Shown here: positions 13,316 through 39,795 of the stretch, piece by piece | Layout: every line of letters starts with the position of its first letter | Position numbering within the stretch: position 1 is the stretch's first letter | Source: Trichomonas gallinae | Lineage: Eukaryota | DNA length: 40,696 nucleotides | Assembly (NCBI GenBank): GCA_008369845.1 | Contig: MRSU01002597.1 | Span: 1-40,696, forward strand | Reading direction: 5' to 3' | The notes under the pieces: model-generated | What the model was told of the DNA's origin: nothing | The model's input: only the letters and a program-made list of their open reading frames with translations | Databases searched by the model: none | Program-made: the position numbers and the translations under genes

Positions 13316-14085
13316 TCGAAATTTTGATATTAACCTTATTAATTTTTATTGTAAAAATCAAATCTATTGTGGTTGTAATATAATGATTATATTGACAAAA
13401 AAAGTGAAAACGTTGTAAATTTTTGGAAAATTCGCTTTTTTCGGTTTTTGGTCATATTTAGCATCTTTACAATGTATGTATATTATATTTATAAGAAAAA
13501 TCGATATTGAATTTGATAGTTATGTTATAACTTTTCTCTTTGATTTTTGATATGAGGAAAATGTGTATAATTTATTTTTGTTATCCAAAGAAATTTTGTC
13601 TTAAGTGTCAAAAATCTTGACTTGATAAAAATAGAATTAAATTTTATAATATATTTGTCATTTACACGGCTTTTTTTATTCAGCAGATTAATCAAAACAA
13701 AATATCTTGGAGAAACATAAACGTAAGAACAACTTTTAATAATGAAATAATATTGATGAAATAGAAATGTATTTATAACCTTAATACTGAGAGATAATTT
13801 GCAATAATTCAAATTTCGGATATCGTATAAAACATTATAAAAGGATGTCAATTAAATGGTAACTCAGGAAAAATCATAGTCATTCAGGATACTCGTTAAA
13901 AGCTGATAAATTCATAATGGTCAATTGGAAAAATTCGATTTTCCGAAATTATTCAAAATTTTCATATATCATGATATATTACAAATAATGGAATTGATTC
14001 CATTAATTAAATTTTCGTTTTAAGCTAAATATTAGACAAATAATGTATAAGATAGAAAATATTAGGAGGAAAAATATTTTGTTAA

Positions 14086-14093
14086 AAAGTGAC
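14086..14093 (+). promoter_or_regulatory. AAAGTGAC core-promoter motif (trichomonad M2-like)
   Basis: exact AAAGTGAC ending 8 nt before ATG 14101; the same octamer is at 30367, 37929 and (reverse) 33885, all intergenic. Confidence 0.5.
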
Positions 14094-14100
14094 ATTTAGA

Positions 14101-15231
14101 ATGCAGGAAAGTCATCGTCCGAGTAAGCGGCCAAGCTCGGGGAAGACAGTTTCTTACTTTCTAGAAATACCTGATAAAGAGCAAGGCGAGAATTTTGGCC
14201 GTATCCAGGAGCAAAATTTCGCTAAATTGCGAAATATTTATGAACATATTCTAACTCCTGCAGAGAAAAAACCAATTAACGAATATAAAAATGAGCTTCA
14301 GGCTACTATAGACATATTACAATCAATGAAAGCTTTATTAGTCGAAGGATATACTCGTTTTGAAGAAAATACAACAAAACTCGTTCCAACCGTGCCAGTT
14401 CGTCAAAAGGCTGCACCAAAGAGGGAAATTATCAGATCAATGTCCCAAAAAATCAGCTACAATCCAAATACGAATCAAAAACCACAGAAAAAACACAAGC
14501 GAGCGTCGATTACTACAGAGACTGGCTCTAAGCAGCTGAATTGCAACACAATTTGGAACCAAGTGAACCGATTTTTCGGCACTGTTCCTACAGTAACAAA
14601 TCTTGCGAAGTATCTATATCAGATAGACGTGACTCCTTCTCGCGGACAGATCGGGCAACACTACTCGATCGCATACAACGAGAAGTTAAAGCAAAAATAC
14701 AAGAATGATTCGGTCCAAATTCGAATTCCTGGCACAATTTCATCGACAACGACATCAAATGTTTCTTCGCCAGACGTTGTTTTTCAGAGATTACTTTGCT
14801 CGTTCGTTCATTTATCAAAAGAAAGATCAATAGAAAGAAATAATAAAATTACAGATACTCCAAAGATTGATCACAATGTTGATGAGTTACATCCGAATGC
14901 ATACGGTACTTCAATATACACAAGTATTCCATTCGAACAAAAACTCATTCTAGAAGTTCAATCATTAGGATTGCATCCAGGAAAGAGTGCAATCAATACA
15001 GTTGATAATCAGATCGCACGAGAAATGGATATGGCTCACGAAGAATACATAAATAGCCTCAAGAAGACAAACCAAATGAGAGCCGTGATTATGGATAAAT
15101 TAAAGAAGATGGAACCGATTTTGACTGCGAAGGCCTTCAAACTGAGGCGAGCAATGCCACAACCTGAACGTCCCGAGACTCCAAAGAAGATTCCTCGGCC
15201 AAAATCTCGTGATAAATCTGTCGATGATTAA
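14101..15231 (+). CDS. Ada3/Ngg1-like histone acetyltransferase complex subunit (putative)
   Basis: 376 aa from ATG 14101; IWNQVNRFF, FQRLLCSFV, FEQKLILEVQSLGL and DNQIAREM match the order of Ada3 conserved blocks. Confidence 0.6.
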   Translation: MQESHRPSKRPSSGKTVSYFLEIPDKEQGENFGRIQEQNFAKLRNIYEHILTPAEKKPINEYKNELQATIDILQSMKALLVEGYTRFEENTTKLVPTVPVRQKAAPKREIIRSMSQKISYNPNTNQKPQKKHKRASITTETGSKQLNCNTIWNQVNRFFGTVPTVTNLAKYLYQIDVTPSRGQIGQHYSIAYNEKLKQKYKNDSVQIRIPGTISSTTTSNVSSPDVVFQRLLCSFVHLSKERSIERNNKITDTPKIDHNVDELHPNAYGTSIYTSIPFEQKLILEVQSLGLHPGKSAINTVDNQIAREMDMAHEEYINSLKKTNQMRAVIMDKLKKMEPILTAKAFKLRRAMPQPERPETPKKIPRPKSRDKSVDD

Positions 15232-15338
15232 AAAATTGTTATTTATTTGTTGATAATTTAGTAGATATTTCAAGAGAACATATATAGTAGTCTTAAGATT
15301 AATGTTTTCGTTAATTTCAATTTTTTAATTTAAATTTT

Positions 15339-15932
15339 TTAGTTGTGAGAACATTTAAGCATGGCCATCTTGAGATTTGCCTGTTCAACAGTCTGGCTGT
15401 CATCTGTTAATGGCCTATTTCCTTGCTTAACGACGAAATTGATTTCTTTATCTTGCAATGTTGGGCGGTTGTATGTTAAGAATTTCTTAAGATCAGCGAT
15501 GGTATGTGACATAGAAAGTGTAATTGTGATTGGCGGGAGTGTTGGGTCTTCGAATTCAATTCTAACTTTTGTCTTCGGCTGTCCTTGGATAGAATAGTCA
15601 GTATTTGGCACGACAAGTTGTGCTGGTGGTTGTTGGCGAATAACTGTTGGAGCAACTGGCTGATTTTGCTGTTGTGGTGGCTGAGGTCCATCTAATGGTG
15701 TGTATTTTTGAATATTTTCTGGTGCAGCGATGACTGCGAGGCCTCCACTGGTATCACTTCCACCTGCATACCATTCAACGGTTTTTCCTTTTGGTGGCGG
15801 TGGGCGGCCTCCGTAATATGATCTTAAGGCTTTCTCAATGTCGTAGTTATTAGATTGGAGGTATTTCGCAGCCATCTGACGTGTGCAATTGTCAGCTAGT
15901 GACATAAACTCTTGAATTTGTTCTTCACTCAT
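15339..15932 (-). CDS. UBX-domain p97 cofactor, p47/Shp1-like
   Basis: N-terminal UBA-like (IQEFMSLA..AAKYLQSNNYDIEKAL..YY), p47 motif WYAGGS..SG, C-terminal UBX-like (TKVRIEF...HTIADLKKFL...LTDDSQTVEQANL). Confidence 0.8.
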   Translation of the reverse strand: MSEEQIQEFMSLADNCTRQMAAKYLQSNNYDIEKALRSYYGGRPPPPKGKTVEWYAGGSDTSGGLAVIAAPENIQKYTPLDGPQPPQQQNQPVAPTVIRQQPPAQLVVPNTDYSIQGQPKTKVRIEFEDPTLPPITITLSMSHTIADLKKFLTYNRPTLQDKEINFVVKQGNRPLTDDSQTVEQANLKMAMLKCSHN

Positions 15933-16324
15933 TTTGATGTCAACTTTTTAAAAATTGACAGTATTCAACAAATTTCTTTAGACATTTAGCTTTTTTACAA
16001 TATATTGAGCCGTTCTGCCCGACAATCTTTACGAAATTTTAACTGAACAAATAATTTTGCAATTATTTTTTTGATATTTTTATAAAATTTTATTTATCTC
16101 TTTATTTACTAAATTTTGAATATAAAAAAATTTTCAAAACAATTTCATAATTGTTCTAGATTTTAAATCAGCAAAAATCATTTTTAATATATTCAAAAAT
16201 TGTTGTGTAAAGTGATATACATGACAAAAAATGAAAAATTAGTATAGAAATATGTCATATAAAATTATTTACATGCCAAAAATAAGAGTCATTTGATTTG
16301 TCTATAAAAATTATATAAAAAACT

Positions 16325-17782
16325 TTATTCTGCGGCTGCTTCTGCTGGAGCCTCTTCACTTGTGTGCTTTCTATGCTTGCGGTGCTTCTTCTTTGGAGCC
16401 TGTTCCTCACTAATCTGGAAATCAGCCTGCTCCTTATAAGCTGGGGCCTGCTCCTTAACTTCATTGAGAGCATCACCCTGCTCTGCTCTAGTGACAGCTG
16501 TTGCTGATTCCTGCTCTTTAACTTTAGCGCGGGAAATAGCAAACTTAACGTTCTGTCCCTGTCTCTGGTGGATCCTGTTCTCTAAGTATTCTCTATCCTG
16601 TGTACCAATAGTAAGTGTTGGCTCGTCTGTGTAGTTATCGACTCTCGATGAAAGTGAGATCTTAGCAGCGAGAGCACGAGCGATTTGTCCCTTAAGTTTA
16701 GGATATTTCGCGGCTTCTGCGGATGTGACGAGTTTGGCGTGGTAAATGTAGCCGTACTTCGGTGTCTCCTTGCCCTCCTTCAGGGCCTTGAAGAGAGCCT
16801 TCTCAGCACCGTAAACTTGGACTGTTGATGATGCAAGTTTAGCGAGCTGCTGGAGTGAGCCTGCGTGTGCGATAAGGCGTGATCCAATCTTATCGCCAAC
16901 GAGTTCTGTAAGGTTTGGTGCGATTGCTAACATTCTTGTTCTGATATATTCTTCGATTTCATTTCTGAACTTTGTAAGTTCGATAACTTGGTCGCAAAGG
17001 GCCTGGATGCAGGCAAGATCAGCATCAGAGAGCTCTGTACCGATGGATCTCTGTGCAATTTTGAGTGTTTCGTCAACTTGATCAGCATTGAGAAGCTTAT
17101 CAAGCTCTTCTCTGCGGGCCTCGAACTGGTCACGGCGGCCAACAAAACGAACGATTTTAGCGTAAATATCATTATCTGTTGTGATGTTCTTGAGTTCTGG
17201 GAAGTGCCAGCCATACCACTCGCGAACACGCATACCGTAGTTGTTGAGTTCCTTGTCAAGTTCCTCCTGAAGCTGAACTGAGTGGACAATCATTGAATCA
17301 ACTTTTGATGGAGAGAATTTCAAGATCTTGGAGCTGAGTTCGTGAGAAACACCGAGTTCAAGAGAGCGGCAGGCGTCCTCAGAAATAGCTGGAAGTAAGT
17401 TTTCAATCTGTGATCTGATAAGGCGGAAGATTTCTGGAACATTTTGGCCAGATGAAGCAACACATTCGATACCAAGGACATCCTTGATAGCGTGTGCTAA
17501 GTTTGCATCGCTTACTTGAAGCTGCTCTTTGATTCCTTTGCTAACGATGTTTGTTTTGAGGAAATCATTGAGTGTTTGGTGGACTTCAGAGTTCTGAAGA
17601 GATTGCATTGCTTCAACTGATTCGCTTGTCTTCGAAAATGTTGAATGTGCTTGAAGAGAGATGATTTTTGAGGCTTGTTTCGCATTAGAATATGCACTGC
17701 AAAGGTCTTCCTTTGAGAGAGCGCCCTCGTTGTCCACGCGCCACAGAGAATAGCCGGCAGCTGTTTCGAAGAGGACTAACAT
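16325..17782 (-). CDS. NOP58: box C/D snoRNP protein Nop58 (Nop5)
   Basis: starts MLVLFETAAGY at ATG 17782 (485 aa); LDKELNNYGMRVREWYGWHFPEL, IAPNLTELVG, GAEKALF, TPKYG motifs; basic C-tail. Confidence 0.93.
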   Translation of the reverse strand: MLVLFETAAGYSLWRVDNEGALSKEDLCSAYSNAKQASKIISLQAHSTFSKTSESVEAMQSLQNSEVHQTLNDFLKTNIVSKGIKEQLQVSDANLAHAIKDVLGIECVASSGQNVPEIFRLIRSQIENLLPAISEDACRSLELGVSHELSSKILKFSPSKVDSMIVHSVQLQEELDKELNNYGMRVREWYGWHFPELKNITTDNDIYAKIVRFVGRRDQFEARREELDKLLNADQVDETLKIAQRSIGTELSDADLACIQALCDQVIELTKFRNEIEEYIRTRMLAIAPNLTELVGDKIGSRLIAHAGSLQQLAKLASSTVQVYGAEKALFKALKEGKETPKYGYIYHAKLVTSAEAAKYPKLKGQIARALAAKISLSSRVDNYTDEPTLTIGTQDREYLENRIHQRQGQNVKFAISRAKVKEQESATAVTRAEQGDALNEVKEQAPAYKEQADFQISEEQAPKKKHRKHRKHTSEEAPAEAAAE

Positions 17783-18299
17783 GGTAATAAAATTGAACTG
17801 GTCTGGCCGATTTTTTGTTTTTTGGGACAAAATTTCTTTTTTATTTAATATTTGGCACCTACTCATTACAACATATCAAAATCATCAATTCTAAAGGAAT
17901 TTATTGATGATGGCCTAAAATTTTTGTCATGTAAACTTTTTTTTCTAAACAATGTCAAATAAATATTTTTTGCCATGTAAAATCACTTATATTTCAAAAA
18001 TTGCAATCTGTTGATATGATTTCTCTCATGATAACATTTCCATTAAGCGAATATTATTCTATATGACGCTATTTATTGAATAAAATGTGAACCATATAAT
18101 CAAATGATTTCTCTTTATCTAATGTTTCTTATTATTATCGGTGATATCCAAATTAGTATAATAGCATATTTACATGATATAGTGAGGATTCGTGCATTAG
18201 AACTCCCAATGAGTTCCGACGAAGTCATCATGATATCAAAAAAAAAGTATTTTTTTATTCAAAATCAATTCATATCCGCTGTTTTTCCATTTGATTTGG

Positions 18300-18389
18300 T
18301 TATACAAAAACATACTGCCTTGCCTCCAAGTACTTGATGATTTCGGTTGCTGAATATTCTTTAGCGACCTGTAGCATAGATCTCTTAAT
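18300..18389 (-). other. isolated terminal ankyrin-repeat coding module (continuation of upstream ankyrin gene)
   Basis: reads IKRSMLQVAKEYSATEIIKYLEARQYVFV-stop. Confidence 0.6.
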
Positions 18390-18600
18390 AAAAAATGAAT
18401 TTCATTGTTTTATGATGAATTTTATATAATTTTGACGATTTATCTCTCACAATAAAGAATAAAATGAAACAATAATGAACACCTTACAATAATAAAGAAT
18501 ATCATTAGTTAATGGTGAATAAAATACGATAATGATGAAATCCAATTGAATTTGATGAATTACTTCATTAGAAAAATACAAATTTCAAAAAATAATGAAG

Positions 18601-18696
18601 AATTGCAATTTTCATGTCTATATCACCTCCATTTTCAACAAGATATTCAACAATCTTGAACTCTCTCTTTTCTATTGCAATGGACAGCGGCGTCTT
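18601..18696 (-). other. isolated ankyrin-repeat coding module
   Basis: reads KTPLSIAIEKREFKIVEYLVENGGDIDMKIAI; immediately preceded by in-frame TAA. Confidence 0.85.
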
Positions 18697-18802
18697 TTAT
18701 TTGTATGATAAACATCATGTGATAATAATGAATATAATATAATCATTATGATAAATTCTTTCATCATAAAAATTATTAGAGAAGGAAAAACATCAATATA
18801 CA

Positions 18803-18907
18803 ATGATGAGCTAATATCTGGTTAATTTTCGCACCATGCTCAACAAGATACTGAACCATTTCAAGTGATCTCATTTCAATAGCTATGCTAAGAGGCGATT
18901 TATATCT
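18803..18907 (-). other. isolated ankyrin-repeat coding module
   Basis: reads RYKSPLSIAIEMRSLEMVQYLVEHGAKINQILAHH; same frame as upstream ORF but behind the TGA at 18977-18979. Confidence 0.85.
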
Positions 18908-18976
18908 ATAAAATGAAGATGAATTGTTTTTGATTTTGATGAATATCTTCTCATAATAATGAATGTTATAGTAATA

Positions 18977-19864
18977 TCATAATAATGAATTGCATTCAGT
19001 TATCATATTAATGAATGTAAAATAAAAATGATAAACTCTACAAGTATCATTAATTTCAAATTCATTTTCAGCAAGGAACAAAAACGCTTCATAATTTCCG
19101 TTATAAATCGCTTCCATTGCATTAAATTCTCCAATCAGCTCTTTAGCTTCGATCATCCATTCGAATACTTCATTATGATGATAGTTAATTGCTGCTTGCA
19201 AATGCTCGTTTTTTAATTTTAAGCCATCATTATATAGTGATAAGATGATGTTTTTGTTGCCACCTTCAGCTGCGTAAATTGATGTTTTATCAGTTATTTC
19301 GGCTCCAAGCAGCTTCAAATACATAAAACATTCTTCAGATCCGTATTTGGATGCAATATCAATCAAAGAAAGATCATTGCATTTCTGATTTATATCAAAA
19401 CTGCCGCTTTTATATGCTTCTTCAAGGAAAGTTAATTCATTCCATGCACAAGCGTGAAAAACAGTATCAGCAGGGTAAATGCTAAGGATTTCATCATAAT
19501 TTTTGCATGGAGATGGAATTCCATAGTTTAAACCCATACTATTGAGGATAACATTAAATTCAGCGTCTAGTGGCTCAAAATCAAATTCATACTTATTTAA
19601 TAAGCATCTGAAAATTGATGCATAAATTAAAATATTCTTTGGGCGAATTCGCGGCATGGAACAGACTAAATATGCAATAGTTTCCTTAGTGACGCGTTTT
19701 TCATCGATATATTCGCATATTTCGTCGTATATCGAATTTATTTTCTCATCTTCATGCGGAATGTTCACAAGTTCCTTCTCCAATTTAATAATTGGCTGAT
19801 AACATGGCGTAATTTCTAGATCTTCAATCTTTTTTACCTTGAGAAGACTGTGAATAGTTTGCAT
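18977..19864 (-). CDS. DUF3447-type ankyrin repeat protein (5' part of an interrupted gene)
   Basis: ATG 19864; SLIDIASKYGSEECFMYL, YAAEGGNKNII, AAINYHHNEVFEWM; ORF runs into AT-rich spacer after ...FEINDTCR (19037). Confidence 0.85.
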   Translation of the reverse strand: MQTIHSLLKVKKIEDLEITPCYQPIIKLEKELVNIPHEDEKINSIYDEICEYIDEKRVTKETIAYLVCSMPRIRPKNILIYASIFRCLLNKYEFDFEPLDAEFNVILNSMGLNYGIPSPCKNYDEILSIYPADTVFHACAWNELTFLEEAYKSGSFDINQKCNDLSLIDIASKYGSEECFMYLKLLGAEITDKTSIYAAEGGNKNIILSLYNDGLKLKNEHLQAAINYHHNEVFEWMIEAKELIGEFNAMEAIYNGNYEAFLFLAENEFEINDTCRVYHFYFTFINMITECNSLL

Positions 19865-20339
19865 CAATTTTTTGTGATTAAAATTCTGTCATTTTCTGTA
19901 TAATTCCATAAACAAACGATAATAATCAGTTCTTTGCAATCCAAAGACAAGCTGTCAGGAGATTTTTATTCGTTCATTTAATAAACAGCAATCAATAGTT
20001 TTGGGACTGATATTAGCAATATTTTATCGAGAATTAACTAATGATTGAGCGATAACCTCAAAATCACGATAAAATAAATGAATTTTGATATTTTAAATAA
20101 AATTGATTTTTAATATCATAGCTAGATTATATGTTACAATTTAATCATATGTATACTGATAATAAGTGCAAAATAAGAAAAAAAATTCAATCTAATTTAT
20201 TGGACTAATGAATGAATTGATTACAAATATGCTACAGCAAAATGAATGAACACTAAATTGTCAATAGTCTTCATAAACAAAGCCGTGTAGTTCTAGGAAT
20301 ATTAAAATAGTTAAAATAAAAAATAAATCATAAAACGCT

Positions 20340-23300
20340 TTATTCAAGGATGTTATTCTTAATAAACTCACAAACTTCACCGAGAGTAGCATAATGCTCT
20401 CTCTGTGGCAGTATTGGTGGCAAACTCTTCGGGTCAGCGATCTTGAAACCTTTTCTTGGTGAAATAAGAGGAGCGACGATAGCAGATATATCTGGGAACT
20501 CTTTTTCTTCTTTGACGAGTGTGCGAATGATCTTCGCGTTGTCAGATGATAGTGATCTGTAGTTCTCATCTGTGGCACCAATGAGCATGTGTGCGATTGC
20601 GACGCTGAGGCATGCAGGATTCAAGATGTGCTTGTTATCCGTCCAGTCGCTTGTGATGATTCTCAGCATTGTAAGAGCATTGGCTGGAACGTCCTCCATC
20701 ATTGTTGTAGCGGCCCATGCCTGCAAGTATGACATGATGTAGGAAACCTGTGGGCCAGTCCAGTACTTCTTCAATATTTCGATGAGGTCGTTGTAATTTT
20801 CTGGAGGGTCTATGCCTAAAAGTGGCTGCGATATCATCAGCGACAAACCTTTAGTTTCAATTCTCCTGATTGAGTCGAAGAGGAATAATATAGCTGATGT
20901 CAAAGAGTACTTAGTGTCTGATATAGCGAGAAGGCTGCCGACTTCCAGCAAGAATGTCAATGATGCGCTGAAGTTAGGTGACATGAATGAATCCGCGCTT
21001 GCGAGTGTCTTAATGACACCTTCAACTACAGCTTGTTCTCCACCGTGTTCTTTGATGACCCAATCGAGCGTGCTGGTGATTGTCGAAGCCTCGCTTGATA
21101 ACTGAACAGCTTCGACGAAGCCTGGTAAGTGCTTCGTGATGAGCTTCAGGAACTGTAAGTCGCCAGTTGTTGAAATGACGAAAATGATAACATCGACGAA
21201 GCCACCGATGTGTTCGGCACGAGCATTCTGTCTGACAACACCAGTGAGGATAGGAAGCATGCGGCCGACTGTCTCCAAGTCGCCTGCCTGTGCGCTGTTC
21301 ATGAAGTTGTTGAGGAAAGCGGATGAGTGTCTTGGCTGGAAGAAGTTTGAGAACAATGTCCAGAAGTCTGCTGAATACTTTGTAAGTGATGCGGCCTTGT
21401 CTGCGCAGACATCGAGGAAGAGTTCTGCAGTGAGGAGAGAGAACTTCTTGAGCGTGGCAAGAAGAAGCTCCATCTGCGGAATCGTGAATTCTGTTGTGTA
21501 TCTGAATGGAAGAACGACAGCATTAGCAACACACTCAGATGGCTTCATGACGAAGAGCGGTAAGTCGCTGGATGGAACAGCAGCGTGAGAAACGGAGATC
21601 AAAAGTGGAGGAATCATATGTGATTCGTAAAGTGGGTTGAATCTCAAGAAAATCGCCCAAGCGAGAATGTACTGGATCTTGTCCATCCAGCAGACATTGA
21701 ATCTCTGGACATCAATTTCAAGGGAGAAGATGTATGACATGCAGGCAGATGCAGCAAGTTCTGAAGCTGTTGGTGTGAAGTTGTCGAATGTCATCTTTGG
21801 ATCTTGAATGATGCGAAGCTTCGATATCAAGAACTGAGCAGTGATTTTAGATTGCTGCAGGAAAGCGCGCTGGAAAGCAATGCAAACAGCGCATAACTGT
21901 TTGGACTCGTTGACAGACACGAACTTGCTCAAAAGCATCTCGAAGATATCCTGGATCTTGACAGGTGGATTCTTGAAGATTATATCCCAGATAGGAAGAA
22001 GAGGCTTGATTGGTGTCAAGTCTGTGAAATCTGTTATAGCAGTGAACTTGAGAAGCTGCTCGATCTGTTCTATGCTAGTGATTGTCCTGAACCTGCTGGC
22101 TATGAACTGGAGGTGCGGCAAGATTGTTCCATTTGCTGCTGTGCTGCCGACAACTTCTGGGAGTAATGTGAAGACGAAATCTCTAGAATCGTTGTCAAGG
22201 AACTGGCTGAAGTGGGCGACAATCTGATCTTCGAAGTCTGCTTCGAGATAAGCCATTGGATGGAACTTTCCTTCAGCTACGTTGTTAGCGATTTCAGCTG
22301 CGATTGCCCTGCAGACGATATTTGGCCTCGAGCATAATCCGAGAGCGAGAACAGCTTGATAAAGTGGTTTGATGTTTGAAATTGCGATGGCGGCAGCGAC
22401 GTGTGCTGTTGTGTAGATAGATGTTCTGAAGCAGGACTTGATGATGGAGGCCATGCATTCCTGGTTCATCATGATGATTGTCTGGAGCAATTCATGGCAC
22501 TTTGCCTGCAGCAAGACTGAGCCTTTAGTCTTAAGAGCGATGAATGTTGTCCAGTCGATTAAATCTTCGATGACTTGATCAGACAATCTCCATGTTGTTA
22601 CGAATGCGTGGACAAGTTCGAGCATTGCGTAAACGTGGGAAATATCTGGTAAAGTGATAGAGTCTGGATTCAATCTCGCGATGATTGAGTTGATGTGCTG
22701 ATAAACATCCTGGAATTCTTCGGAATTTGTCAAATATTCAGAAGAAGCTCTAACCAATGTCGCGCAAAATTCTGATGCAGAAACATCAGCCTGTTGCTCG
22801 TCTTCGTTCCTTGGGGCTGGAGAAACAATGAATGCTTTGAGTAGCTGAATCAATAAATCTGTTAATGTTCTGTTCTCGTTCACAGCCTTCTTGAAATTCT
22901 TGTTGCAAGACATTGCGTAAGGGATCTTTAGCTTATTCCTGATGTCGAGGTCCTTAATATTCTTCAATATTTCGATGTACATTGACCAGACGTCGAATGG
23001 AAGCATCGTCGTGATGTTGATAAGCTCTTGTCTTGGTAATGTAGACAAAACTTTCAGCATCTTAGAGACTCCTTGCTGCATCAAATTCTCGTTGTTGACG
23101 AAATATTCGTGTCTGCATAAAATGTACAAGAACTTCGCCAATCTAACTCTGAACTCTTTCAAGTGATTATCAGCTGAGTTGAACGTCATAATCAGAGAAG
23201 TGATTCTCTGCTCAATGCCTTCTTGCATCAAGATCTTGATCAAAGAATTCAAGTCGATATCGGTAATATTCGGAATCAAATTTGCAAGAGTCTTGGCATT

Positions 23301-25142
23301 AGGAGCAATGCTCGTGATGCTGCCTGATCTCATCATCTCCCATATGTCTTGAACTGTGTCCAAGATGTTCTGTGCAGGGAAGAAAGAGAACATGATGAGC
23401 TTGTTTTCTGTCGCCTTGAGAACCCTTATGAATTGCTCCTGGTCGACGACATTGTCGCCTCTCTTCGCGTAAATTAAGATAGATCTGAAGAATGCGTGAT
23501 AAATGTTGAAGACAGAGTTAATCTGTTGTGAAGAAATGTCAATTTCTGTTCTCTTCAAGAACTGTATCGCGAATGTTGTGATGAGGTTGATTGGCATTGT
23601 GCCGACAGGATAGTTCTCCATGATGTCTGTGAAGAAGGTTGACGCGTGTGTTAAAACGGTGATATCATTCGATTTGATGAATCTCGACATTAATGACGTA
23701 ATCAAGCCGTGCATATTTGTCTCGTTCTGCCATAATATACTTAAAAGAGGGGCGAATAGCTTGAGAGTGTTCGGTGGTATGTCTTGTTGGTTGCACATGT
23801 CTGTGACAACTGGCGCAATCATCGATGTTAAGCCGCTCATGTTTTCTTTTGTGATGCAGATGATGATCTGGATTGTCTGGACGATCCTGGTGTAGAGTGG
23901 ATGCGATTCGCCTGCCTGTATGATTGGTGTCGCGAGTTCTTTGAATTGATCTGGGGCGCAAAAGTGAATCTTAGATGCAATCTGCATCCAGTAGTCTGTA
24001 TCATTTGCATATGTAGATGTGAAGTTGCTTGTCTTGTCAAACCATTTACCAAGGAAGTATTTGACGACTTCAGCAGCGATTGCTGGTTTTTCGACAAGAG
24101 AATCGAGATACAAGCCAATAAGCCTGAAGTATACCATGCCACCGAGCTTGGAATAGTGCTTGTTCAACGAATGCGAGAATTTTTGTGCTAATGGTGCGAT
24201 TTCTGTTTCACTCGCGATTTTTGTGAGCTGGAACAAGAGAGTAAACCAGTCTTCAGATGGAGAGTCCAAAGCATATTTGGCTAAATTGGCGTAAAACAAA
24301 GTGATATAAGATGAAATGTAATGTTTTTCTGGTGAATTCTCGTTAATGAAGTAGAATGTCTTTGTAATGAGCGAAGCAACTGGCTGCAATGACCATTTAC
24401 CCTTCAACTGACTGAGAATTTGAACCATACTAGTTAATGTATCTCTTGAAGCTTCTCTGAAGTAATCGACACCCGTTGTGATAAGGTTTAGAGAGTTTTG
24501 AACCTTCGGCTCTAGTTTTAACTGCGCAATTGAAGTAATCATTTCCCAAATTTGAGCGGAAATCGCCGAGTTAACTGTCATCAAGTTGATAATGATACCT
24601 TCTGTACCATTACCTTTCTTTCTTTTGAGTAAAACGTTCAATAACAGTTCGAAAATTGAATGATCAAGCGCTGCGAGCTCTTCGACTGGAATTTGTTTGA
24701 TAAATGTGCCAAGATAATCAAGTAAAGTGATAATATAGTTGTATCCTTGTTTTGGAATGTGTAATCCTGATCTTCCTTTAGTTCTTTCTCTACGAATTTC
24801 TTTTCCTGGTTTCAAAGTGCGTACACCCCATATTATAATATGTTGAATAGCAACAGCAATCGAACTCGTGATAAAATTGCGTGTTTCATCATCAGCAAGA
24901 TGATTAATATGTAATTCGAGCACTTTTTGATGTAAGCGGATATCTTCTTGGCTTAATTCGTCGAATTTTTCTGGTATTTGCTTAAAATAAAGAGCAAAAT
25001 TAGAATTTTGCATATATCCAGCCGAAGAATACACGTTCTCCACCGCGAGCTTGCGGTCCACACCCAGATCTTTCATGAATCCGAATAAGGAGACGGCTGC
25101 CCACTGCCTGATTAAAATTTCGATTTTTTCTTGGATATTCAT
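20340..25142 (-). CDS. large hypothetical alpha-solenoid (ARM/HEAT-like) protein
   Basis: 1600-aa uninterrupted ORF rich in amphipathic helices; no catalytic motif recognised. Confidence 0.85.
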   Translation of the reverse strand: MNIQEKIEILIRQWAAVSLFGFMKDLGVDRKLAVENVYSSAGYMQNSNFALYFKQIPEKFDELSQEDIRLHQKVLELHINHLADDETRNFITSSIAVAIQHIIIWGVRTLKPGKEIRRERTKGRSGLHIPKQGYNYIITLLDYLGTFIKQIPVEELAALDHSIFELLLNVLLKRKKGNGTEGIIINLMTVNSAISAQIWEMITSIAQLKLEPKVQNSLNLITTGVDYFREASRDTLTSMVQILSQLKGKWSLQPVASLITKTFYFINENSPEKHYISSYITLFYANLAKYALDSPSEDWFTLLFQLTKIASETEIAPLAQKFSHSLNKHYSKLGGMVYFRLIGLYLDSLVEKPAIAAEVVKYFLGKWFDKTSNFTSTYANDTDYWMQIASKIHFCAPDQFKELATPIIQAGESHPLYTRIVQTIQIIICITKENMSGLTSMIAPVVTDMCNQQDIPPNTLKLFAPLLSILWQNETNMHGLITSLMSRFIKSNDITVLTHASTFFTDIMENYPVGTMPINLITTFAIQFLKRTEIDISSQQINSVFNIYHAFFRSILIYAKRGDNVVDQEQFIRVLKATENKLIMFSFFPAQNILDTVQDIWEMMRSGSITSIAPNAKTLANLIPNITDIDLNSLIKILMQEGIEQRITSLIMTFNSADNHLKEFRVRLAKFLYILCRHEYFVNNENLMQQGVSKMLKVLSTLPRQELINITTMLPFDVWSMYIEILKNIKDLDIRNKLKIPYAMSCNKNFKKAVNENRTLTDLLIQLLKAFIVSPAPRNEDEQQADVSASEFCATLVRASSEYLTNSEEFQDVYQHINSIIARLNPDSITLPDISHVYAMLELVHAFVTTWRLSDQVIEDLIDWTTFIALKTKGSVLLQAKCHELLQTIIMMNQECMASIIKSCFRTSIYTTAHVAAAIAISNIKPLYQAVLALGLCSRPNIVCRAIAAEIANNVAEGKFHPMAYLEADFEDQIVAHFSQFLDNDSRDFVFTLLPEVVGSTAANGTILPHLQFIASRFRTITSIEQIEQLLKFTAITDFTDLTPIKPLLPIWDIIFKNPPVKIQDIFEMLLSKFVSVNESKQLCAVCIAFQRAFLQQSKITAQFLISKLRIIQDPKMTFDNFTPTASELAASACMSYIFSLEIDVQRFNVCWMDKIQYILAWAIFLRFNPLYESHMIPPLLISVSHAAVPSSDLPLFVMKPSECVANAVVLPFRYTTEFTIPQMELLLATLKKFSLLTAELFLDVCADKAASLTKYSADFWTLFSNFFQPRHSSAFLNNFMNSAQAGDLETVGRMLPILTGVVRQNARAEHIGGFVDVIIFVISTTGDLQFLKLITKHLPGFVEAVQLSSEASTITSTLDWVIKEHGGEQAVVEGVIKTLASADSFMSPNFSASLTFLLEVGSLLAISDTKYSLTSAILFLFDSIRRIETKGLSLMISQPLLGIDPPENYNDLIEILKKYWTGPQVSYIMSYLQAWAATTMMEDVPANALTMLRIITSDWTDNKHILNPACLSVAIAHMLIGATDENYRSLSSDNAKIIRTLVKEEKEFPDISAIVAPLISPRKGFKIADPKSLPPILPQREHYATLGEVCEFIKNNILE

Positions 25143-26100
25143 ATAAAAATAAATATTTTTGTTGTTTTATTTTTTTATACCAACAAAATAAATTTATTCT
25201 CTTCTTGCTGTACACTTCACATATCTCTCGATTCGGATTATCCTTTTCAAGTTTTCAATAAAAAAATTCCTGAAATTACATCTTTTTATCTTTTAATCTG
25301 TGGATTTTTCATTAGATTATCGAGCGCATTCTGTTTTCATTAATAATTTTGGAGATTACGAAAAGAAAATTGGAATTTTTTACTGCAATTTTGTTTTATT
25401 TTATCATATTTGTATTGTATATCTAAAATAAATCACAATCTCATATTTATTATGTGTATTTAATGATTAATTTTATCGTTTTTTTGAAATTTTTTAAATT
25501 TTTCAAGAAAAAATTATACATTTTATATTGCATCAAGAAATAAAAATCATAATTATATAATTTTGACACGAAAATAATATGAAATTTCATCATATCCCAT
25601 CGTTATCATATCAATGAACCTAAAATTAATACATTTTAACAACATAATTTTTAAATTTGATTATTTTAACAATTATTACTGGTAAATAATGTTATTTCTT
25701 AATGATTTATATACTTTATATTGTCACTTAATTTGATACATGCACAAAATTATATAATAGTGTTTGTTGAATGTTTTTGCTGAAACAAAATTCTTCCGAG
25801 AAAAATGTTGGAAAAAAATTCGGTAATTTTAACACAAAAATATTTAACTCATATTTATTATATCAATCAACATAAAATTGTCCAATTTTGAAAACATTGA
25901 TTTTAAATTTCATTATTTTCACAATCATTATTAGGAAGTCATATTCTTTCTTAATAAATTATATTCTTCACATTGTTAATTATCATAACATATATATAGA
26001 ATTAAGTAATATTTTTTATGTAATGTTTTTGCTGAAGCGAAATTAGTCCGAGAAGAAGAAGAAAAATTAGGGAGAGACAAAATTCTTCAGGGGAGAAAAA

Positions 26101-27435
26101 ATGAAATGCTCGTCGCCCACGGACGGGGAGTCAGAGGACTGGCTTGACATCCGCATGTCCACAAGCAAGGACATCCCAGAGCATTACTTCTCCAAAGAAT
26201 GGGCGAGGAGATTAATCGACGACAATCCAATTGAAGTGCCATTTGGCGGCCTGCACAACCTAGGCAACTCCTGCTTCCTTAACTCTGTTCTTCAGTGCCT
26301 GGCTTATACACCTGGCCTTGAAAGACTTGCGAATTCTCTTCCGAACGTCATATTAGAAAATTGTTCGGGCAAACCATGCTTTTTATACCATTTTGGGCAG
26401 CTATGCAAAGCTCTTCGCACATTGCCTATATCGGCACCGCATGTTTTCTTCGCTAATATGCGCCAGGTGAGCTCAGATATGGAATGCGGAATTCAACAAG
26501 ATGCACACGAATATTTATTCGCTCTATTGAACCATTTCGACGACGAGTGCTCTTTATCGAAAGAAAAATGCGCTGTCAACTTAGATACACCTGTTCACTC
26601 ATTTTTCGGTGGACAGTTCAGAGAAACGAAAATTTGCGCAACATGCGGACATAATGATCAAACAACGTCAAGATTTCTCGATATTACGCTTCCTTTAGAT
26701 GCAGATACTCTTGAAGGCTGTTTTGATAGCTTTATGAAGCCAAGAAATGTAGGAAGCAACTACATATGCGAGCATTGCAAACAAGCCGGTACCTGTTCTA
26801 CAAGAACTAAATTTGCTGATACACCAAATATTTTAATTATAACAATGATGAGATTTACAGCCACGGCAAATAAAGATGAACGACCAGTAGATTTCGGATT
26901 GAACATAGATCTTAAAGATTTCGTTGAAGAAGGTGTAGATCATTTTTATGAGCTTTTCGCAGTTATAAATCACAGTGGCCACCAGGTAAATCGTGGTCAC
27001 TTCACATGCATGGTCAAGTGTAACAATGGATCATGGTATAACTGTGATGACACAAAGATTACAAAAGATGCATCTCAAAATGTCCTTGATTCTAAACCTT
27101 ACGTTTTATTCTACAAGAGAACAAAGGGCCCAGTGATGGAGCCCGTATACGTTACTTTCGGAATTATGCCAAAGGAAAAGAAAAAAATCCAGCCGAAATC
27201 AGTCAGAACGAGGCGCCGCGTCAAAATCGAAGAAGAAGAGGAAGAACAGGACGAAATAATGGCACAGCAACATAACATGCCAAAGAATCCATTTGATGGC
27301 TTCGTTAGTGAAGTTTCTGATGGAGATCAGGATTTGATAGACGATGGTGAAATGATTGTCGAGAAAACGTTCCACAAACAGGATAAGAAACTCATCACCG
27401 TGCAATTCTTCTGCGCAGCTTCAAAGAAGAAATAA
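26101..27435 (+). CDS. ubiquitin-specific protease (family C19)
   Basis: Cys box GLHNLGNSCFLNSVLQCL, QQDAHEY, two CxxC pairs, His box GHFTCMVK..WYNCDD, YVLFY. Confidence 0.95.
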   Translation: MKCSSPTDGESEDWLDIRMSTSKDIPEHYFSKEWARRLIDDNPIEVPFGGLHNLGNSCFLNSVLQCLAYTPGLERLANSLPNVILENCSGKPCFLYHFGQLCKALRTLPISAPHVFFANMRQVSSDMECGIQQDAHEYLFALLNHFDDECSLSKEKCAVNLDTPVHSFFGGQFRETKICATCGHNDQTTSRFLDITLPLDADTLEGCFDSFMKPRNVGSNYICEHCKQAGTCSTRTKFADTPNILIITMMRFTATANKDERPVDFGLNIDLKDFVEEGVDHFYELFAVINHSGHQVNRGHFTCMVKCNNGSWYNCDDTKITKDASQNVLDSKPYVLFYKRTKGPVMEPVYVTFGIMPKEKKKIQPKSVRTRRRVKIEEEEEEQDEIMAQQHNMPKNPFDGFVSEVSDGDQDLIDDGEMIVEKTFHKQDKKLITVQFFCAASKKK

Positions 27436-27623
27436 TATTAGATTGAATATTTTTATAGATTATTGTTCTAAAAAATTGTCAAATTATATTGATTACGCAC
27501 ATGTTTTGGAATACAATCCATCAAATCACATTTGAAAATTGTGATTTATTTTTATATTCAATTTCTTAAATTAGTTGTAATGAATCAACGGCATATTTTT
27601 CAACATAAAAAATTATTTAAAAT

Positions 27624-27960
27624 TTAATTAAGCTCATAATGGCTTGTAATCAATTCATTAAAATTGCTGAAGAAGTTTGACAATCTCAGAATGATTTCTG
27701 AAGCAATATCTAAGGCTGTCTTGTTAATTTTATCTCGTGCGTTTACATCAATTGCAAGGAGAAACTTGACAATTTCAGTACGTTCATAATCTGAAGCTTT
27801 CATTAAAGCTGTTTGTTTTATATCATCTTGTGCGTTTACATCAATTCCATTAACCACAAGAAGAAGTATAACATTTTCGGTCTATCCATTAACTGAAGCT
27901 CTAATTAAAGCTGTTTCTACGAATTTATCGTGCGTTGATATCTAATTCTGGAATTGTGAG
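27624..27960 (-). pseudogene. ankyrin repeat pseudogene fragment
   Basis: LTIPELDINAR / frameshift / DKFVETALIRASVNG-stop-TENVILLL..GIDVNAQDDIKQTALMKAS...DVNARDKINKTALDIAS; frameshift, internal TAG and a short deletion; no 5' part. Confidence 0.8.
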
Positions 27961-28112
27961 AGATTTCGAGAATTATAGGATCTGAACTTTGTTGCTCTAT
28001 TGTTTTATTTTGCATTGATATTTTCGCCCCACCCAGTCTATTTTGGGTATTATATTATCATCGATTAAAAAAAAGTTCATATTTGATATCAACAAACAAC
28101 AAACTAATTTAT

Positions 28113-30347
28113 TTATTTCTTAGATTTTTTAGATGATTTGCTTGTCTCAGAAGTAGTATCATCACCAGTTATCTCATCATCTTTAGATATCGAAGCCTTA
28201 GACTTCTTTCTTGCAGGTGTTCCATTCTTCTTGCCTCCTTTCTTCTTCTCGGATGTTTTCGAAAGCTCGGATTGCATAGACAGCTGAGGGCTGACAATAG
28301 GGAGGTTCTTAGAAGGCGATTTGCTGATTGTTTCTTTCTTCTTGATAACTTTCTTTTCAGTTTTTTGCTCACCGAAAACCAAAAACTCTGGTAGTTCTTC
28401 TAACTGGTCGACAGCACCAGTCTTCAGCATCTCTTCCAGCTTCTTGACTTCGACTTCAAGAAGCTCAACATCCTCCTTCATCTTCTCCTTCTTTTCGTTA
28501 TTCTTTTGCTGGATGTTTTCCAGCTTCGTCTTCGCTTCAGCTATCTGCCCTCTGACCTTCTCTGTCGCCTTCTTGTTCTCTTCCAAATCCTGCTTCAGTT
28601 TCTTCTCTTTCTCGCGCAAAGTTACAAGCTGTCCTTCGATTTTCTCTGTTTTTGCAGCGCTTTCAGTTTTTTCGAGTTCTAGCGTCTGCTCTTTCTCGAC
28701 AATCTGCTTGTGCAAGTTGGAAGTCTCGTTTGACTCCGAATCAAGTATTGCGATCGTTTTTTCTTCGATTGATTTGATTTCATCTTTCATATGATGGTTT
28801 TGGCGTTCTAAGTCATGTAAAATCTCGTCTTTCCTCTTCAACTCAGCTGATGCATATTGAAGCTGAAGGTACGTGTTCCTTGCCGGCTGTTTTCTGCGCC
28901 TTTTGAGTGTATCTGCATTTCTTGCGCAAATTTCGTTAAGAGCATTGAATGAAAAGTGGTTGATTTGTGTTCCACTGACATTAATTTTCAGTATATGTGT
29001 GTTAACTTTGAAGATTTTCTCGAAATCAGTGCCAGTTGCTTCGAGGAAGAAATTATTGCACATTTCGAGAGAAATAAGCGATGGACATAATATTGATGCT
29101 TCAGCTATTGCGCGACCACCTTTGTCTGTAATCATTGCAGTTGATAAATTTAATGTTGTAATTGTTTTGTTGGATTGAAGAACGATTGCAAGGGCAAGAG
29201 CAGTTTCATCACCAAGTTTGTTTTGTGACACATTTAATGACGCCAAAACCTCGTTTTTAAGTAATGCATTTGCTAAAGCGACACCACCTGTGTGTGTGAT
29301 CTGGCAATTCCTTAGGTGCAGTTCTACAATGGTCTGGTTCGTTTCTAACGCCTTGGCAATAGCTTTCGCGCCATCATCGCCGACAACATTATCGCTTAAA
29401 TCTAAATAGCCGAGATAATTAGTTTTTTCTATGTATTTCGCAAACTTGAATGCAACTTCAGGCTGGAAACAGTTATCACTAAGGTCTATGTAGAATAAAT
29501 GAGGATAATCTCCTTGTTCATTTGAATTCTTTTTCTTTGTTGGATTTAAGAGGTAATCTGCGAATGCCACACCAAACTGATACTCTGGCTTCGGGCTGGC
29601 GTTCAAATAATTACTACTTAAATCAATTCGAATTAAAGTTGAGTTATAGCCAAGTCCACTTGTAATAAAGTTAGTAGATAGAATGGGTCGAACGTCAGAA
29701 AGCTTTTTCTTTTCAGAATCGATATTATTCGCACTTAAAAATTTTAGAGAGCTAGATTGCGATAATAGCTTAATTAAAATGGTCTCAACGGGCAGGAATG
29801 TTGATTCATGATGCATTGTAAAGTCGCAACCGCTAATTCCAAGTGTTTGGAAATTTGGTGCTTTTATTATTGCGTCAACGAGGATTGTAAGTGTTGCTGG
29901 CGTTATTGTATTAGCATGCACAGCCTTTTCTGTAATTCCAAGTTGCAAAGAAAGCAAATGATTTGATAAAATCATATTAGCCATGTGATTCGCTGATTTA
30001 TCAGTAATATCATTACATCCAATGTTCAATGTTTGTATTCCTTTGTTTAATTGAATGAAATGGGCCAGTATAGCTAAGCCCTGATCCTTTAACGAATTGC
30101 AATAAACATCAATTTTGCGTAAATCTGTTCTATTTCGACTGAATTTTGCTATGGTATTCGCTGCAGCGCTGCCTATATGAATAGATCTTAAAATCATTGA
30201 TTGTCCGTAAACTTTGTTTTTCAATTTTGAAGTGAACCTGAAAAATTCTTCGCGAGTTGGTTCTTCTTGAGTATCTTTGCATCTAGAAACATACAACTCC
30301 TCTAAAAATAGTAACTGATCTGGAACTTCTTCTTCTTCAACATCCAT
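28113..30347 (-). CDS. RNI-like leucine-rich repeat protein with C-terminal coiled coil
   Basis: repeats such as YLDLSDNVVGDDGAKAIAKAL and LNVSQNKLGDETALALA; E/K-rich heptads; basic tail. Confidence 0.9.
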   Translation of the reverse strand: MDVEEEEVPDQLLFLEELYVSRCKDTQEEPTREEFFRFTSKLKNKVYGQSMILRSIHIGSAAANTIAKFSRNRTDLRKIDVYCNSLKDQGLAILAHFIQLNKGIQTLNIGCNDITDKSANHMANMILSNHLLSLQLGITEKAVHANTITPATLTILVDAIIKAPNFQTLGISGCDFTMHHESTFLPVETILIKLLSQSSSLKFLSANNIDSEKKKLSDVRPILSTNFITSGLGYNSTLIRIDLSSNYLNASPKPEYQFGVAFADYLLNPTKKKNSNEQGDYPHLFYIDLSDNCFQPEVAFKFAKYIEKTNYLGYLDLSDNVVGDDGAKAIAKALETNQTIVELHLRNCQITHTGGVALANALLKNEVLASLNVSQNKLGDETALALAIVLQSNKTITTLNLSTAMITDKGGRAIAEASILCPSLISLEMCNNFFLEATGTDFEKIFKVNTHILKINVSGTQINHFSFNALNEICARNADTLKRRRKQPARNTYLQLQYASAELKRKDEILHDLERQNHHMKDEIKSIEEKTIAILDSESNETSNLHKQIVEKEQTLELEKTESAAKTEKIEGQLVTLREKEKKLKQDLEENKKATEKVRGQIAEAKTKLENIQQKNNEKKEKMKEDVELLEVEVKKLEEMLKTGAVDQLEELPEFLVFGEQKTEKKVIKKKETISKSPSKNLPIVSPQLSMQSELSKTSEKKKGGKKNGTPARKKSKASISKDDEITGDDTTSETSKSSKKSKK

Positions 30348-38166: not shown

Positions 38167-39795
38167 ATGTTTCTCTTATATGCGAATATAGTTTTTTCAT
38201 CACCAATAAGGGTATTTTATGACTTAGATTACCTTGATAACAACTACTGTCGGTGTGAAACCGAAGAAAACACTTCGTGTAACAAAATGAAATGTGATAA
38301 GGAAGATTTAGTTACAGAAAGCACTAAAGAGAAGATCAAATACACTACAGATGCAGCATCAGCATATTTGAAAGAACTTCTTTCAATAAAAAAACCACGA
38401 AACGAAATTCAACTTTCTCAATATAGCGACAACGAACTCTTCAACATATACAAACCTAAGGAATACATCAACAACGTCGATGTTTACATTCAAGTTGCAG
38501 TTCAGAGTCTTCCAGGCGACAACCGCGCAGCTTTCTCTCTGAACCACAACGACACATGCTGTTCTCCATACCACGGCATTATTGTTTTGTCATCCAAGTA
38601 TGTCAACAGTGTTGAAGCCTCAAACTCCACATCAACAAACCGCGAACTTTTCCAAACCATTGTTCACGAAACATTCCATATTCTTGGTCTTCGGAGCAGC
38701 CTATTCAAGTATTGGATCAACCCATCTACAAACAAAATCTATGGAAGCGTGATTAATATGTCTCATGTTATCAATTTCCGTGGCATCAAAAGGAATTTCA
38801 CACTCATTAATACACCTCTTGCCCAGATGTTGGCAAAAGTTAGATTTAACATAGAAGATAGTGTTCCACTTGGTATTGAACTGGAGGATGCCGGACCTAA
38901 AGGAACATGGAGCGACCACCTCGAGTCTCGTATATATTTCGGTGACATCATGATGGGACTCTCAGACAAACGTCTCAGTGTCAGTGACATCACGCTTGCT
39001 CTTCTTGCAGACACTGGTTTCTACGATGTCAATCTCAACATGAGCGAACCTCTTGCATGGGGCGACTCACGCTTCTTCAATGGAGACTTCACAGAAACAT
39101 TCTTATATAACAATCCAGCAACATTCCCGTCAAGCTACTTATGCACAGACAATGAGTCACTAAATCAACAGACAAAAAGCAACTACAATGTTTGCACTTA
39201 CGATTTCCTTGGTCTTGCAACATGCAGATCAAAGCGTGACACAATTGACTGCGCGAACACTACGAATGATGAGGAGCAGTACTACTGTGACTCCAAGATA
39301 TACTATAATCAAAACAATCACAGCTACATTGGCCTCGATCGCATTGTTGACTGGCTTCCTACTAAGAGCACACTTTCTCTTTGTGGCAAAGGCCATCGTT
39401 GCAGCATTGTTGGTTCCGATCCAACATCAAACGGCATCGGTGTCTGTGTTAAACTCGAGAAATACGACTCAGCATCATACACGATCTCATACAACGGTGC
39501 CACCGCTACATGCCATTCCGAAGGCGAGATTGTTAATCTTGGCGACACTAAATTGAAGTGTGACCACATCTATGGTTTTTCACATGCGGAAGAATTCTAT
39601 GAGAAAACTGAATCACAGTTGTTAACGGTAGATGAAAATACACAAGAGGGACTTAGTGGCTGGGAGATCAGTCTTATAGTAATCTCCTCATGCTTAGGTG
39701 TCGCTGGTACAGGTGGAGTCTCAGTTGTTATTTACATACGTATTGGCAAGAAAGATGAAGATGACTACCACAAAGAAGAGTTACTTTTGGTTTAG
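38167..39795 (+). CDS. GP63-like (leishmanolysin, peptidase M8) surface metalloprotease
   Basis: short N-terminal signal, HETFH zinc motif, LEDAG..GT.SDHLE, DIMMG Met-turn, LALLADTGFYDVN, Cys-rich region, C-terminal TM helix and short acidic tail. Confidence 0.93.
   Translation: MFLLYANIVFSSPIRVFYDLDYLDNNYCRCETEENTSCNKMKCDKEDLVTESTKEKIKYTTDAASAYLKELLSIKKPRNEIQLSQYSDNELFNIYKPKEYINNVDVYIQVAVQSLPGDNRAAFSLNHNDTCCSPYHGIIVLSSKYVNSVEASNSTSTNRELFQTIVHETFHILGLRSSLFKYWINPSTNKIYGSVINMSHVINFRGIKRNFTLINTPLAQMLAKVRFNIEDSVPLGIELEDAGPKGTWSDHLESRIYFGDIMMGLSDKRLSVSDITLALLADTGFYDVNLNMSEPLAWGDSRFFNGDFTETFLYNNPATFPSSYLCTDNESLNQQTKSNYNVCTYDFLGLATCRSKRDTIDCANTTNDEEQYYCDSKIYYNQNNHSYIGLDRIVDWLPTKSTLSLCGKGHRCSIVGSDPTSNGIGVCVKLEKYDSASYTISYNGATATCHSEGEIVNLGDTKLKCDHIYGFSHAEEFYEKTESQLLTVDENTQEGLSGWEISLIVISSCLGVAGTGGVSVVIYIRIGKKDEDDYHKEELLLV

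Follow-up and report, generated by a model that had tools for sequence, protein, structure and literature searches.

The window analysed here, a stretch of 40,696 nucleotides (nt) from Trichomonas gallinae (contig MRSU01002597.1 of GenBank assembly GCA_008369845.1), is gene-dense and contains long unbroken open reading frames (ORFs). Its minus strand carries an ankyrin gene whose first ORF (19864-18977, 295 amino acids, aa) encodes a DUF3447 domain (PF11929; 28.3 bits vs. a cut-off of 26.9) followed by ankyrin repeats (Ank_2, 32 bits), and whose named relatives are T. vaginalis G3 proteins. This gene is interrupted by three spacers, each built as an array of segments that are all exactly 17 nt long, with the consensus start RTTYATY (6 + 5 + 11 = 22 segments). 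Contigs from public sequencing runs indicate that the segments are very probably removed at the RNA level, while short coding pieces between them are retained.

Structure of the interrupted gene

The spacers extend over 19036-18908 (129 nt), 18811-18697 (115 nt) and 18603-18384 (220 nt), with a GC content of 18-20% vs. 33-37% in the coding parts of the gene. Between the segments lie 19 in-frame micro-exons of 3-18 nt (3 nt, n = 14; 6 nt, n = 2; 9 nt, n = 2; 18 nt, n = 1), which account for 90 of the 464 spacer nt. Removal of all 22 segments leaves 1191 nt, or 396 codons with a single stop at the end. The features of the gene, all on the minus strand, are as follows (X2 and X3 are sequencing runs described below).

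19037..19864, minus strand: exon 1 with start codon, DUF3447 and first ankyrin repeat, 276 codons; X2 contig gapless from 19835
18908..19036, minus strand: array 1, six 17-nt segments from the parse (19020-19036, 19000-19016, 18974-18990, 18948-18964, 18928-18944, 18908-18924)
Within array 1, minus strand: micro-exons from the parse (19017-19019, 18991-18999, 18965-18973, 18945-18947, 18925-18927)
18812..18907, minus strand: exon with ankyrin module 1, 96 nt; Pfam Ank, X2 record positions 830-923
18697..18811, minus strand: array 2, five 17-nt segments from the parse (18795-18811, 18775-18791, 18740-18756, 18717-18733, 18697-18713)
Within array 2, minus strand: micro-exons from the parse (18792-18794, 18757-18774, 18734-18739, 18714-18716)
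18604..18696, minus strand: exon with ankyrin module 2, 93 nt; Pfam Ank_3, covered by X2 and X3
18384..18603, minus strand: array 3, eleven 17-nt segments from the parse (18587-18603, 18567-18583, 18544-18560, 18524-18540, 18504-18520, 18484-18500, 18464-18480, 18444-18460, 18424-18440, 18404-18420, 18384-18400)
Within array 3 (18384..18603), minus strand: ten micro-exons from the parse, each of 3 nt except for one of 6 nt (18561-18566)
18300..18383, minus strand: last exon with capping half-repeat and stop codon, from the parse; X2 record positions 1079-1166

For held-out parsing, a weight matrix was trained on two spacers and applied to the third, with 300 shuffles per spacer. The resulting chain scores of 76, 43 and 102 compare with shuffle maxima of 24, 21 and 31, and for each spacer none of the 300 shuffles reached the observed score. 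In a matrix scan of the whole window we found only the three arrays and one weak chain of three motif-like 17-mers on the plus strand (25908-25979, upstream of an ORF at 26101), which has no RNA coverage and probably arose by chance in AT-rich intergenic DNA. Segment ends are non-slidable in 10 of the 22 segments; all ten lie in phase 0, and all 19 micro-exons consist of whole codons. The 30 micro-exon codons include 6 for Tyr, 3 for Phe and 9 for Asp or Glu, and they extend the inter-repeat loops to 14-16 residues, about twice the usual length. Inter-repeat loops are the binding face of ankyrin proteins. Modules 1 and 2 match Ank_3 in Pfam (E-values of 5e-6 and 1.9e-4, respectively); module 3, which has no Pfam match at an E-value of 0.1, is the final capping half-repeat.

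Parts of this architecture had been anticipated in a preliminary description of the locus. It placed the end of protein-like coding in the first ORF at 19037 and described AT-rich spacers with stops, the second and third of which shift the frame, and both statements agree with our results. It listed three clean ankyrin modules, which also holds, the third being the one without a Pfam match. The GT/AG pairs that it named at the first two junctions delimit 131 and 108 nt and, as it had noted, give out-of-frame joins, for which reason we rejected single-intron GT-AG solutions. Its spacer sizes of about 132, 106 and 214 nt are replaced by those of the parse, and the proposal that clean joins at the loops restore near-canonical repeat spacing was wrong, because part of each spacer consists of coding micro-exons.

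Segments in DNA and in probable RNA

Three public runs cover part of the region; X2 and X3, which differ in study and organism label, are guessed to be RNA and X1 to be DNA, and contigs were compared at 14000-28500 and 18200-19150. A single X2 contig of 1181 nt unites exon 1, modules 1 and 2 and the last exon. At array 1 this contig skips 135 nt and has 33 letters between the flanking exons (135 - 33 = 6 x 17), and at array 3 it skips 220 nt, again with 33 letters between (220 - 33 = 11 x 17). These letters are the short pieces that are set apart by exactly 17 nt in the spacers of the window, and removal of whole spacers is rejected by their retention. At array 2, the X2 positions 923 and 955 fit the removal of 5 x 17 nt. 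Overall, the X2 positions predicted by the parse (830, 923, 955, 1045 and 1079) and the predicted length (1166 plus 15 loose letters = 1181) equal the record in six out of six cases. In the X3 contig of 152 nt, module 2 is flanked by 26 letters from the micro-exons of array 2 and by 33 from those of array 3, 30 of the latter being printed; the contig gives the last three junctions of array 2 by letters, with micro-exons identical to those of the window. Junctions 1-6 and 12-22 are thus given by letters in X2 and junctions 9-20 (n = 12) in X3, together 20 of 22, and for junctions 7 and 8, the first two of array 2, the evidence is the length of the contig.

X2 and X3 are most readily understood as RNA of this locus. 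X2 has a depth of 0 at 25132-25615, 27552-28035 and 18200-18295, its listed pieces lie on coding stretches, and the contig depths listed vary by gene from 4.7 to 154.5. X1, by contrast, yields a single contig of 9586 nt that is syntenic with the window and has a flat depth of 25.4 over genes and intergenic DNA. This contig keeps 18954-19036 without gaps, including segments 1-3 and part of segment 4, and ends at 18954. Modules 2 and 3 and the Nop-domain gene have no X1 coverage, and runs X4 and X6 yielded no contigs over the region; such gaps carry no weight as evidence. X1 and X2 share all 7 changes listed in 19040-19150 and 32 of the 35 listed rows in 19043-19608, a comparison that leans to shared changes as 40 of 676 rows were shown, picked by support. 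In addition, a synonymous change of X1 at 19039 recurs in the junction letters of X2. Because X1 shares these variants, the DNA genotype nearest to the X2 contig carries the segments, although X1 and X2 are different samples. No unspliced X2 contig and no joined form in X1 are listed, and X2 and X3 include the same micro-exons, with no sign of alternative use. For nine loose ends of X2 at 18831, the consensus (agreement 0.72) includes a stop and is uninformative.

The exons appear to be under selection. Compared with the window, four micro-exon codons and two flanking codons differ in X2 or X3, all six synonymously (judged by eye), and the four module changes listed, out of 13 X2 differences there, are synonymous as well, so that all ten exon changes visible at or after the first junction are silent. 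Five changes are listed for X1 within segments, at positions 7 and 9-12; there are none at positions 1-6, and no gaps.

The joined frame in probable RNA and the synonymous exon changes bear out the earlier claim that the modules are functional, and the joined transcript and silent changes refute neutral insertion of AT-rich DNA into a dead gene. Precise removal without GT-AG had also been suggested; precision and ends stand, but the unit is not the whole spacer, as 5 to 11 separate 17-nt pieces are taken out at each array. Ribosomal bypassing is disfavoured because the segments are already missing from the X2 and X3 contigs, if these are RNA, and DNA-level excision is disfavoured too.

The ankyrin gene lies between a 1600-aa ORF and a gene with a Nop domain. 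Another ankyrin-like stretch of the window (27625-27935, minus strand) contains degenerate repeats and a stop in frame, and it lacks a 17-nt array; X1 shows small indels there and X2 has no depth at 27552-28035. In contrast to the arrays, it looks like an ordinary decayed ankyrin fragment. A plus-strand ORF (38167-39795) with a HETFH zinc-protease-like motif and a C-terminal hydrophobic stretch presumably encodes a protein resembling a GP63/leishmanolysin-like surface protease, as judged by eye.

Sequence signals and mode of removal

The 22 segments are all distinct, with 18% GC and a mean identity of 9.9 of 17 positions (58%, range 6-15); the first 14 bases of segments 3 and 4 are identical. 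The sole invariant position is position 3 (T in 22/22), followed by position 4 (pyrimidine, 22/22), position 6 (T, 21/22), position 7 (pyrimidine, 21/22), position 2 (T, 20/22), position 8 (A, 18/22), position 16 (A, 17/22) and position 1 (A in 16, G in 5). Segments start with AT (15), GT (4), GC (1), TT (1) or AA (1) and end with AT (10), AA (5), TT (4), AG (2) or TA (1), and GT-AG ends are found in none of them under any equivalent cut within 3 nt.

By their defining features, the segments fall outside every intron class tested here. With exactly 17 nt in all 22 cases they have the narrow fixed length of tiny spliceosomal introns, but they lack a branch A at a constant distance of 6-7 nt from the end: A occupies position 11 in 13 of 22 segments, and segment 8 contains no A at positions 1-14. 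When compared with the trichomonad 5' motif (GYAYGY or GTWYWD), G is present at +1 in 5 of 22, while type B is matched at position 2 (T) in 20 segments and at positions 3 (T) and 4 (Y) in all 22. CTAA occurs near the end of three segments and is followed in none by a 3' motif (RCTAACACAYAG or TCTAAC..AACAG was sought), in line with the absence of this motif stated in the preliminary description. Introns of the U12 type have the 5' site RTATCCTT and the branch sequence TCCTTAAC; the invariant T at position 3 of the segments does not fit this site. No fold is predicted for 18 of the 22 segments alone, and with 10-nt flanks the values range from 0 to -5.6 kcal/mol without a common shape. Neither pairing that joins both segment ends, as in euglenozoan introns, nor hairpins or helices presenting both cut sites, as in IRE1-type and tRNA splicing, were found, and no Rfam family, including group I and II introns, matched in the window at its gathering score.

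The reading that we favour, with somewhat better than even confidence, is that the 22 segments are cut from the transcript and the 3-18 nt pieces joined in frame by a dedicated, non-spliceosomal system, giving a predicted ankyrin protein of 396 aa. A cut-and-join system of this kind would read the RTTYATY start and measure 17 nt, excise each segment from the RNA and ligate the pieces between. It is favoured because the segments have no GT-AG ends and no fused branch motif, no fixed branch A and no structure. If removal takes place at the RNA level, dedicated enzymes are somewhat more probable than not; an RNA-binding endonuclease with an RtcB-type ligase, working 5' to 3' along each array, would be one candidate. 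T. vaginalis has four RtcB genes (PMC8718801). Arrays may grow and shrink by slippage or by duplication of units consisting of one 17-mer plus whole codons; unit duplication would keep phase 0, and binding loops would gain or lose residues codon by codon. The strict phase 0 could stem from such frame-keeping duplication; selection favouring codons that can be skipped, or a coupling to the ribosome, could also produce it.

Several observations weigh against this reading. No enzyme, intermediate or excised piece has been seen, the runs do not include DNA and RNA from the same isolate, the RNA status of X2 and X3 is a guess, and all evidence consists of contigs, one per run; X1 does not cover arrays 2 and 3, whose presence in DNA is known from the window. 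The form RT...AN in 15 of 22 segments, the A at position 16 and a start similar to the type B 5' site would suit a relaxed spliceosome. Furthermore, eight motif-like 17-mers of at least 5 bits, three of them in phase 0, are retained in 6788 coding bases over which X2 is gapless, and across 28,263 coding bases phase 0 shows no depletion of the motif. As motif-like 17-mers are kept in ordinary coding sequence, array or loop context must matter. The motif alone is insufficient for removal, and what confines cutting to the arrays is explained neither by a dedicated system nor by the spliceosome.

Removal by the spliceosome, either as such or in a specialised form with a fixed length measure and a tolerance for ends other than GT-AG, is the main rival, which we regard as possible but rather unlikely. 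The start with RT in 19 of 22 segments, the frequent A at position 16 and the three occurrences of CTAA near the end are compatible with it, and relaxed intron ends are processed by the major spliceosome in Fritillaria. Fixed tiny intron lengths are known in Stentor (15-16 nt; PMC9505925) and mikrocytids (16-17 nt; PMC10245619), and Trichomonas retains 57 spliceosome genes for 63 known introns (PMC12316389). However, none of the 22 segments is GT-AG, the branch A is not invariant and G at +1 is rare, whereas Stentor introns are mostly GU-AG with a fixed branch A and the known introns of the same lineage as the segments have strict extended motifs. It is improbable that the joined contigs derive from a segment-free gene copy, either an intronless paralog or a product of DNA-level excision, with the array copy as a second version. 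DNA and RNA of the same isolate are not available as a pair, three long X1 contigs over 19269-19274 imply that paralogs exist, and relatives with long loops are encoded unbroken, as far as the protein (P0023) shows. Yet the X2 variants follow the syntenic, segment-keeping X1 contig, no joined form is listed in X1, and the purely synonymous differences of the four micro-exon codons would need selection on the interrupted copy.

Slightly less probable still is the idea that the segments are never transcribed, the polymerase jumping 17 nt at the motif, or that they are cut on the translating ribosome. It would account for the phase 0 of all ten non-slidable segments and the whole codons of all 19 micro-exons, and X2 joins over the arrays with no unspliced contig listed. 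Frame-keeping duplication of a single ancestral segment in phase 0 would, however, lead to phase 0 as well, the three phase-0 motif-like 17-mers are retained in ordinary coding sequence, and rare forms drop out of contigs. A reverse-transcription or assembly artefact, or a dead gene with AT-rich insertions, is very improbable indeed. Although only contigs were seen and the sequence is AT-rich and of low complexity, 22 deletions of one length, 10 of them without a repeated end base, occur alike in two studies and restore one frame, no fold is predicted for 18 of 22 segments, and exon changes are synonymous.

Relatives and comparison with known introns

Paralogs and related proteins point to a wider occurrence of arrays. 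In a few X1 contigs of paralogs, the repeats give way at their ends to AT-rich, motif-like sequence that is in phase 0, and in a few paralogous X2 contigs two consensus ends lying upstream of a repeat start read as open coding sequence. Among 150 protein matches, 59 have a tail of 12-80 residues past the last ankyrin motif, and 25 of these 59 (P0001 left out) are rich in I, F, Y, H and L. We modelled such tails as the product of translating units made up of L nt and whole codons, scored in bits over shuffles. With back-to-back units allowed, L = 17 reached 256 bits and L = 14 244 bits, with at most 129 for other lengths; with back-to-back units disallowed, L = 14 reached 230 bits vs. 162 for L = 17, and in simulations the two lengths were hard to distinguish. 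Matches to TVAG_104420 (n = 87, of which 76 are named T. vaginalis G3) have a tail by rule in 60 cases. True post-ankyrin tails are 56 of these 60, all scoring above shuffles for L = 14 and 17, and the other four are earlier truncations that score below; sums are 512 (14), 490 (17), 364 (20), 257 (23) and at most 153 otherwise. The tails suggest similar arrays, with units of 14 or 17 nt, in these 56 T. vaginalis paralogs, which form one subfamily rather than independent cases and are known from proteins alone.

T. vaginalis G3 proteins P0160-P0240 belong to a DUF3447 subfamily, are mostly 180-340 aa long and have an annotated end 13-51 residues past the first ankyrin repeat, with a hydrophobic I/F/L tail. 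These tails probably reflect mistaken annotation that reads on into arrays, and by eye the frame moves in steps of about 17 and 20 nt. P0023/P0155, P0026, P0028 and P0031 have long inter-repeat loops that are unbroken, and in some of them the protein finishes with a tail at one of the later loops; the long loops may be older than the segments, or segments may have been lost loop by loop. P0010 (TVAG_004680) has an I/F/Y-rich insertion of 61 residues (about 317-377) between two ankyrin repeats that fits neither 14- nor 17-nt units, possibly reflecting another unit length or an irregular array. TVAG_271400 gave no signal in the tail model, and the protein search found no spliced-form protein for the window gene or TVAG_004680. 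P0100, a DUF3447-like protein on a JGI/IMG contig of 1586 nt, has a tail that fits 17-nt units (18-19 bits over shuffles). A periodic-motif scan of viral sequences returned 21 loci, all simple tandem repeats, and a metagenome scan at least 119 loci, which are repeats or chance and show no preference for steps of 17+3k among the output listed; an ankyrin motif was found in none of the 140 viral and metagenome loci among the matches listed. A protein-seeded metagenome scan gave 572 pattern matches, none of which was confirmed.

A much broader proposal, which we consider speculative and doubtful, is that trichomonads including T. vaginalis possess a second mRNA splicing system, independent of the spliceosome, that measures out and removes 17-nt units from large ankyrin families and builds loops from single-codon exons, with gain, loss and skipping of units acting as a loop diversifier. 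If the arrays are what they appear to be, they would represent an mRNA intron class without GT-AG or structure, of one fixed length and with exons down to single codons, in a lineage usually presented as almost without introns. Many DUF3447-ankyrin proteins annotated as truncated would then carry wrong C-termini, and part of the puzzle of split and truncated T. vaginalis genes would have a testable account. If the enzyme is not the spliceosome, it would be new machinery for RNA processing, attractive both as a tool and as a process specific to the parasite.

In the full-text literature searched, which covered main texts and few subscription journals, neither fixed 17-nt arrays without GT-AG nor single-codon exons are described for trichomonads. 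The segments resemble the introns of Stentor (PMC9505925) and mikrocytids (PMC10245619) in being very short, nearly fixed in length, AT-rich and probably missing from mRNA. Stentor introns are mostly GU-AG with a branch A at position 10-11 and those of mikrocytids are highly conserved in sequence, whereas the segments have no GT-AG ends or fixed branch A, are 58% identical on average, occur 22 in one gene and form arrays with single-codon exons. In the 2025 catalogue of Trichomonas introns (PMC12316389), all have GT-AG ends and a fused branch motif, none is shorter than 23 nt, no gene has more than two and none is of the U12 type, which is reported absent from T. vaginalis. Type B introns among them (23-25 nt) come from the same lineage, are short and uniform and have a 5' site, GTWYWD, close to RTTYATY, but they always end in TCTAAC..AACAG with GT-AG and number one or two per gene. 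Since this 2025 catalogue dropped junctions without canonical motifs, arrays like those described here would have been filtered out.

Non-spliceosomal systems offer other parallels. IRE1/RtcB splicing of XBP1/HAC1 and tRNA splicing likewise involve a short non-spliceosomal intron, a precise cut and ligation and a change of frame. There, paired hairpins or tRNA structure in a single target determine where the cuts fall, whereas most segments are unfolded and their signal looks like a repeated 5' motif plus fixed length. The XBP1 intron measures 26 nt. Diplonemid and euglenid (PMC12621601) and Giardia (PMC10711314) introns are also protist mRNA introns without GT-AG; they have paired ends or are GC-rich, longer and variable, and no arrays or single-codon exons are described in the available parts of these sources. 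For T. vaginalis, 1,465 split genes are cited, and Trichomonas transcripts extend over several predicted ORFs, ankyrin genes included (bioRxiv 10.64898/2026.08.31.748405). That work explains them by stop read-through of unspliced mRNA, and the words deletion and indel are absent from its main text, whereas here a probable RNA contig is free of the interrupting bases. Translational bypassing (T4 gene 60, byps) differs in that the skipped stretch stays in the mRNA, while X2 and X3, if RNA, do not keep it. On present evidence the arrays probably represent a new kind of mRNA intron, or a variant of spliceosomal introns if the spliceosome removes them.
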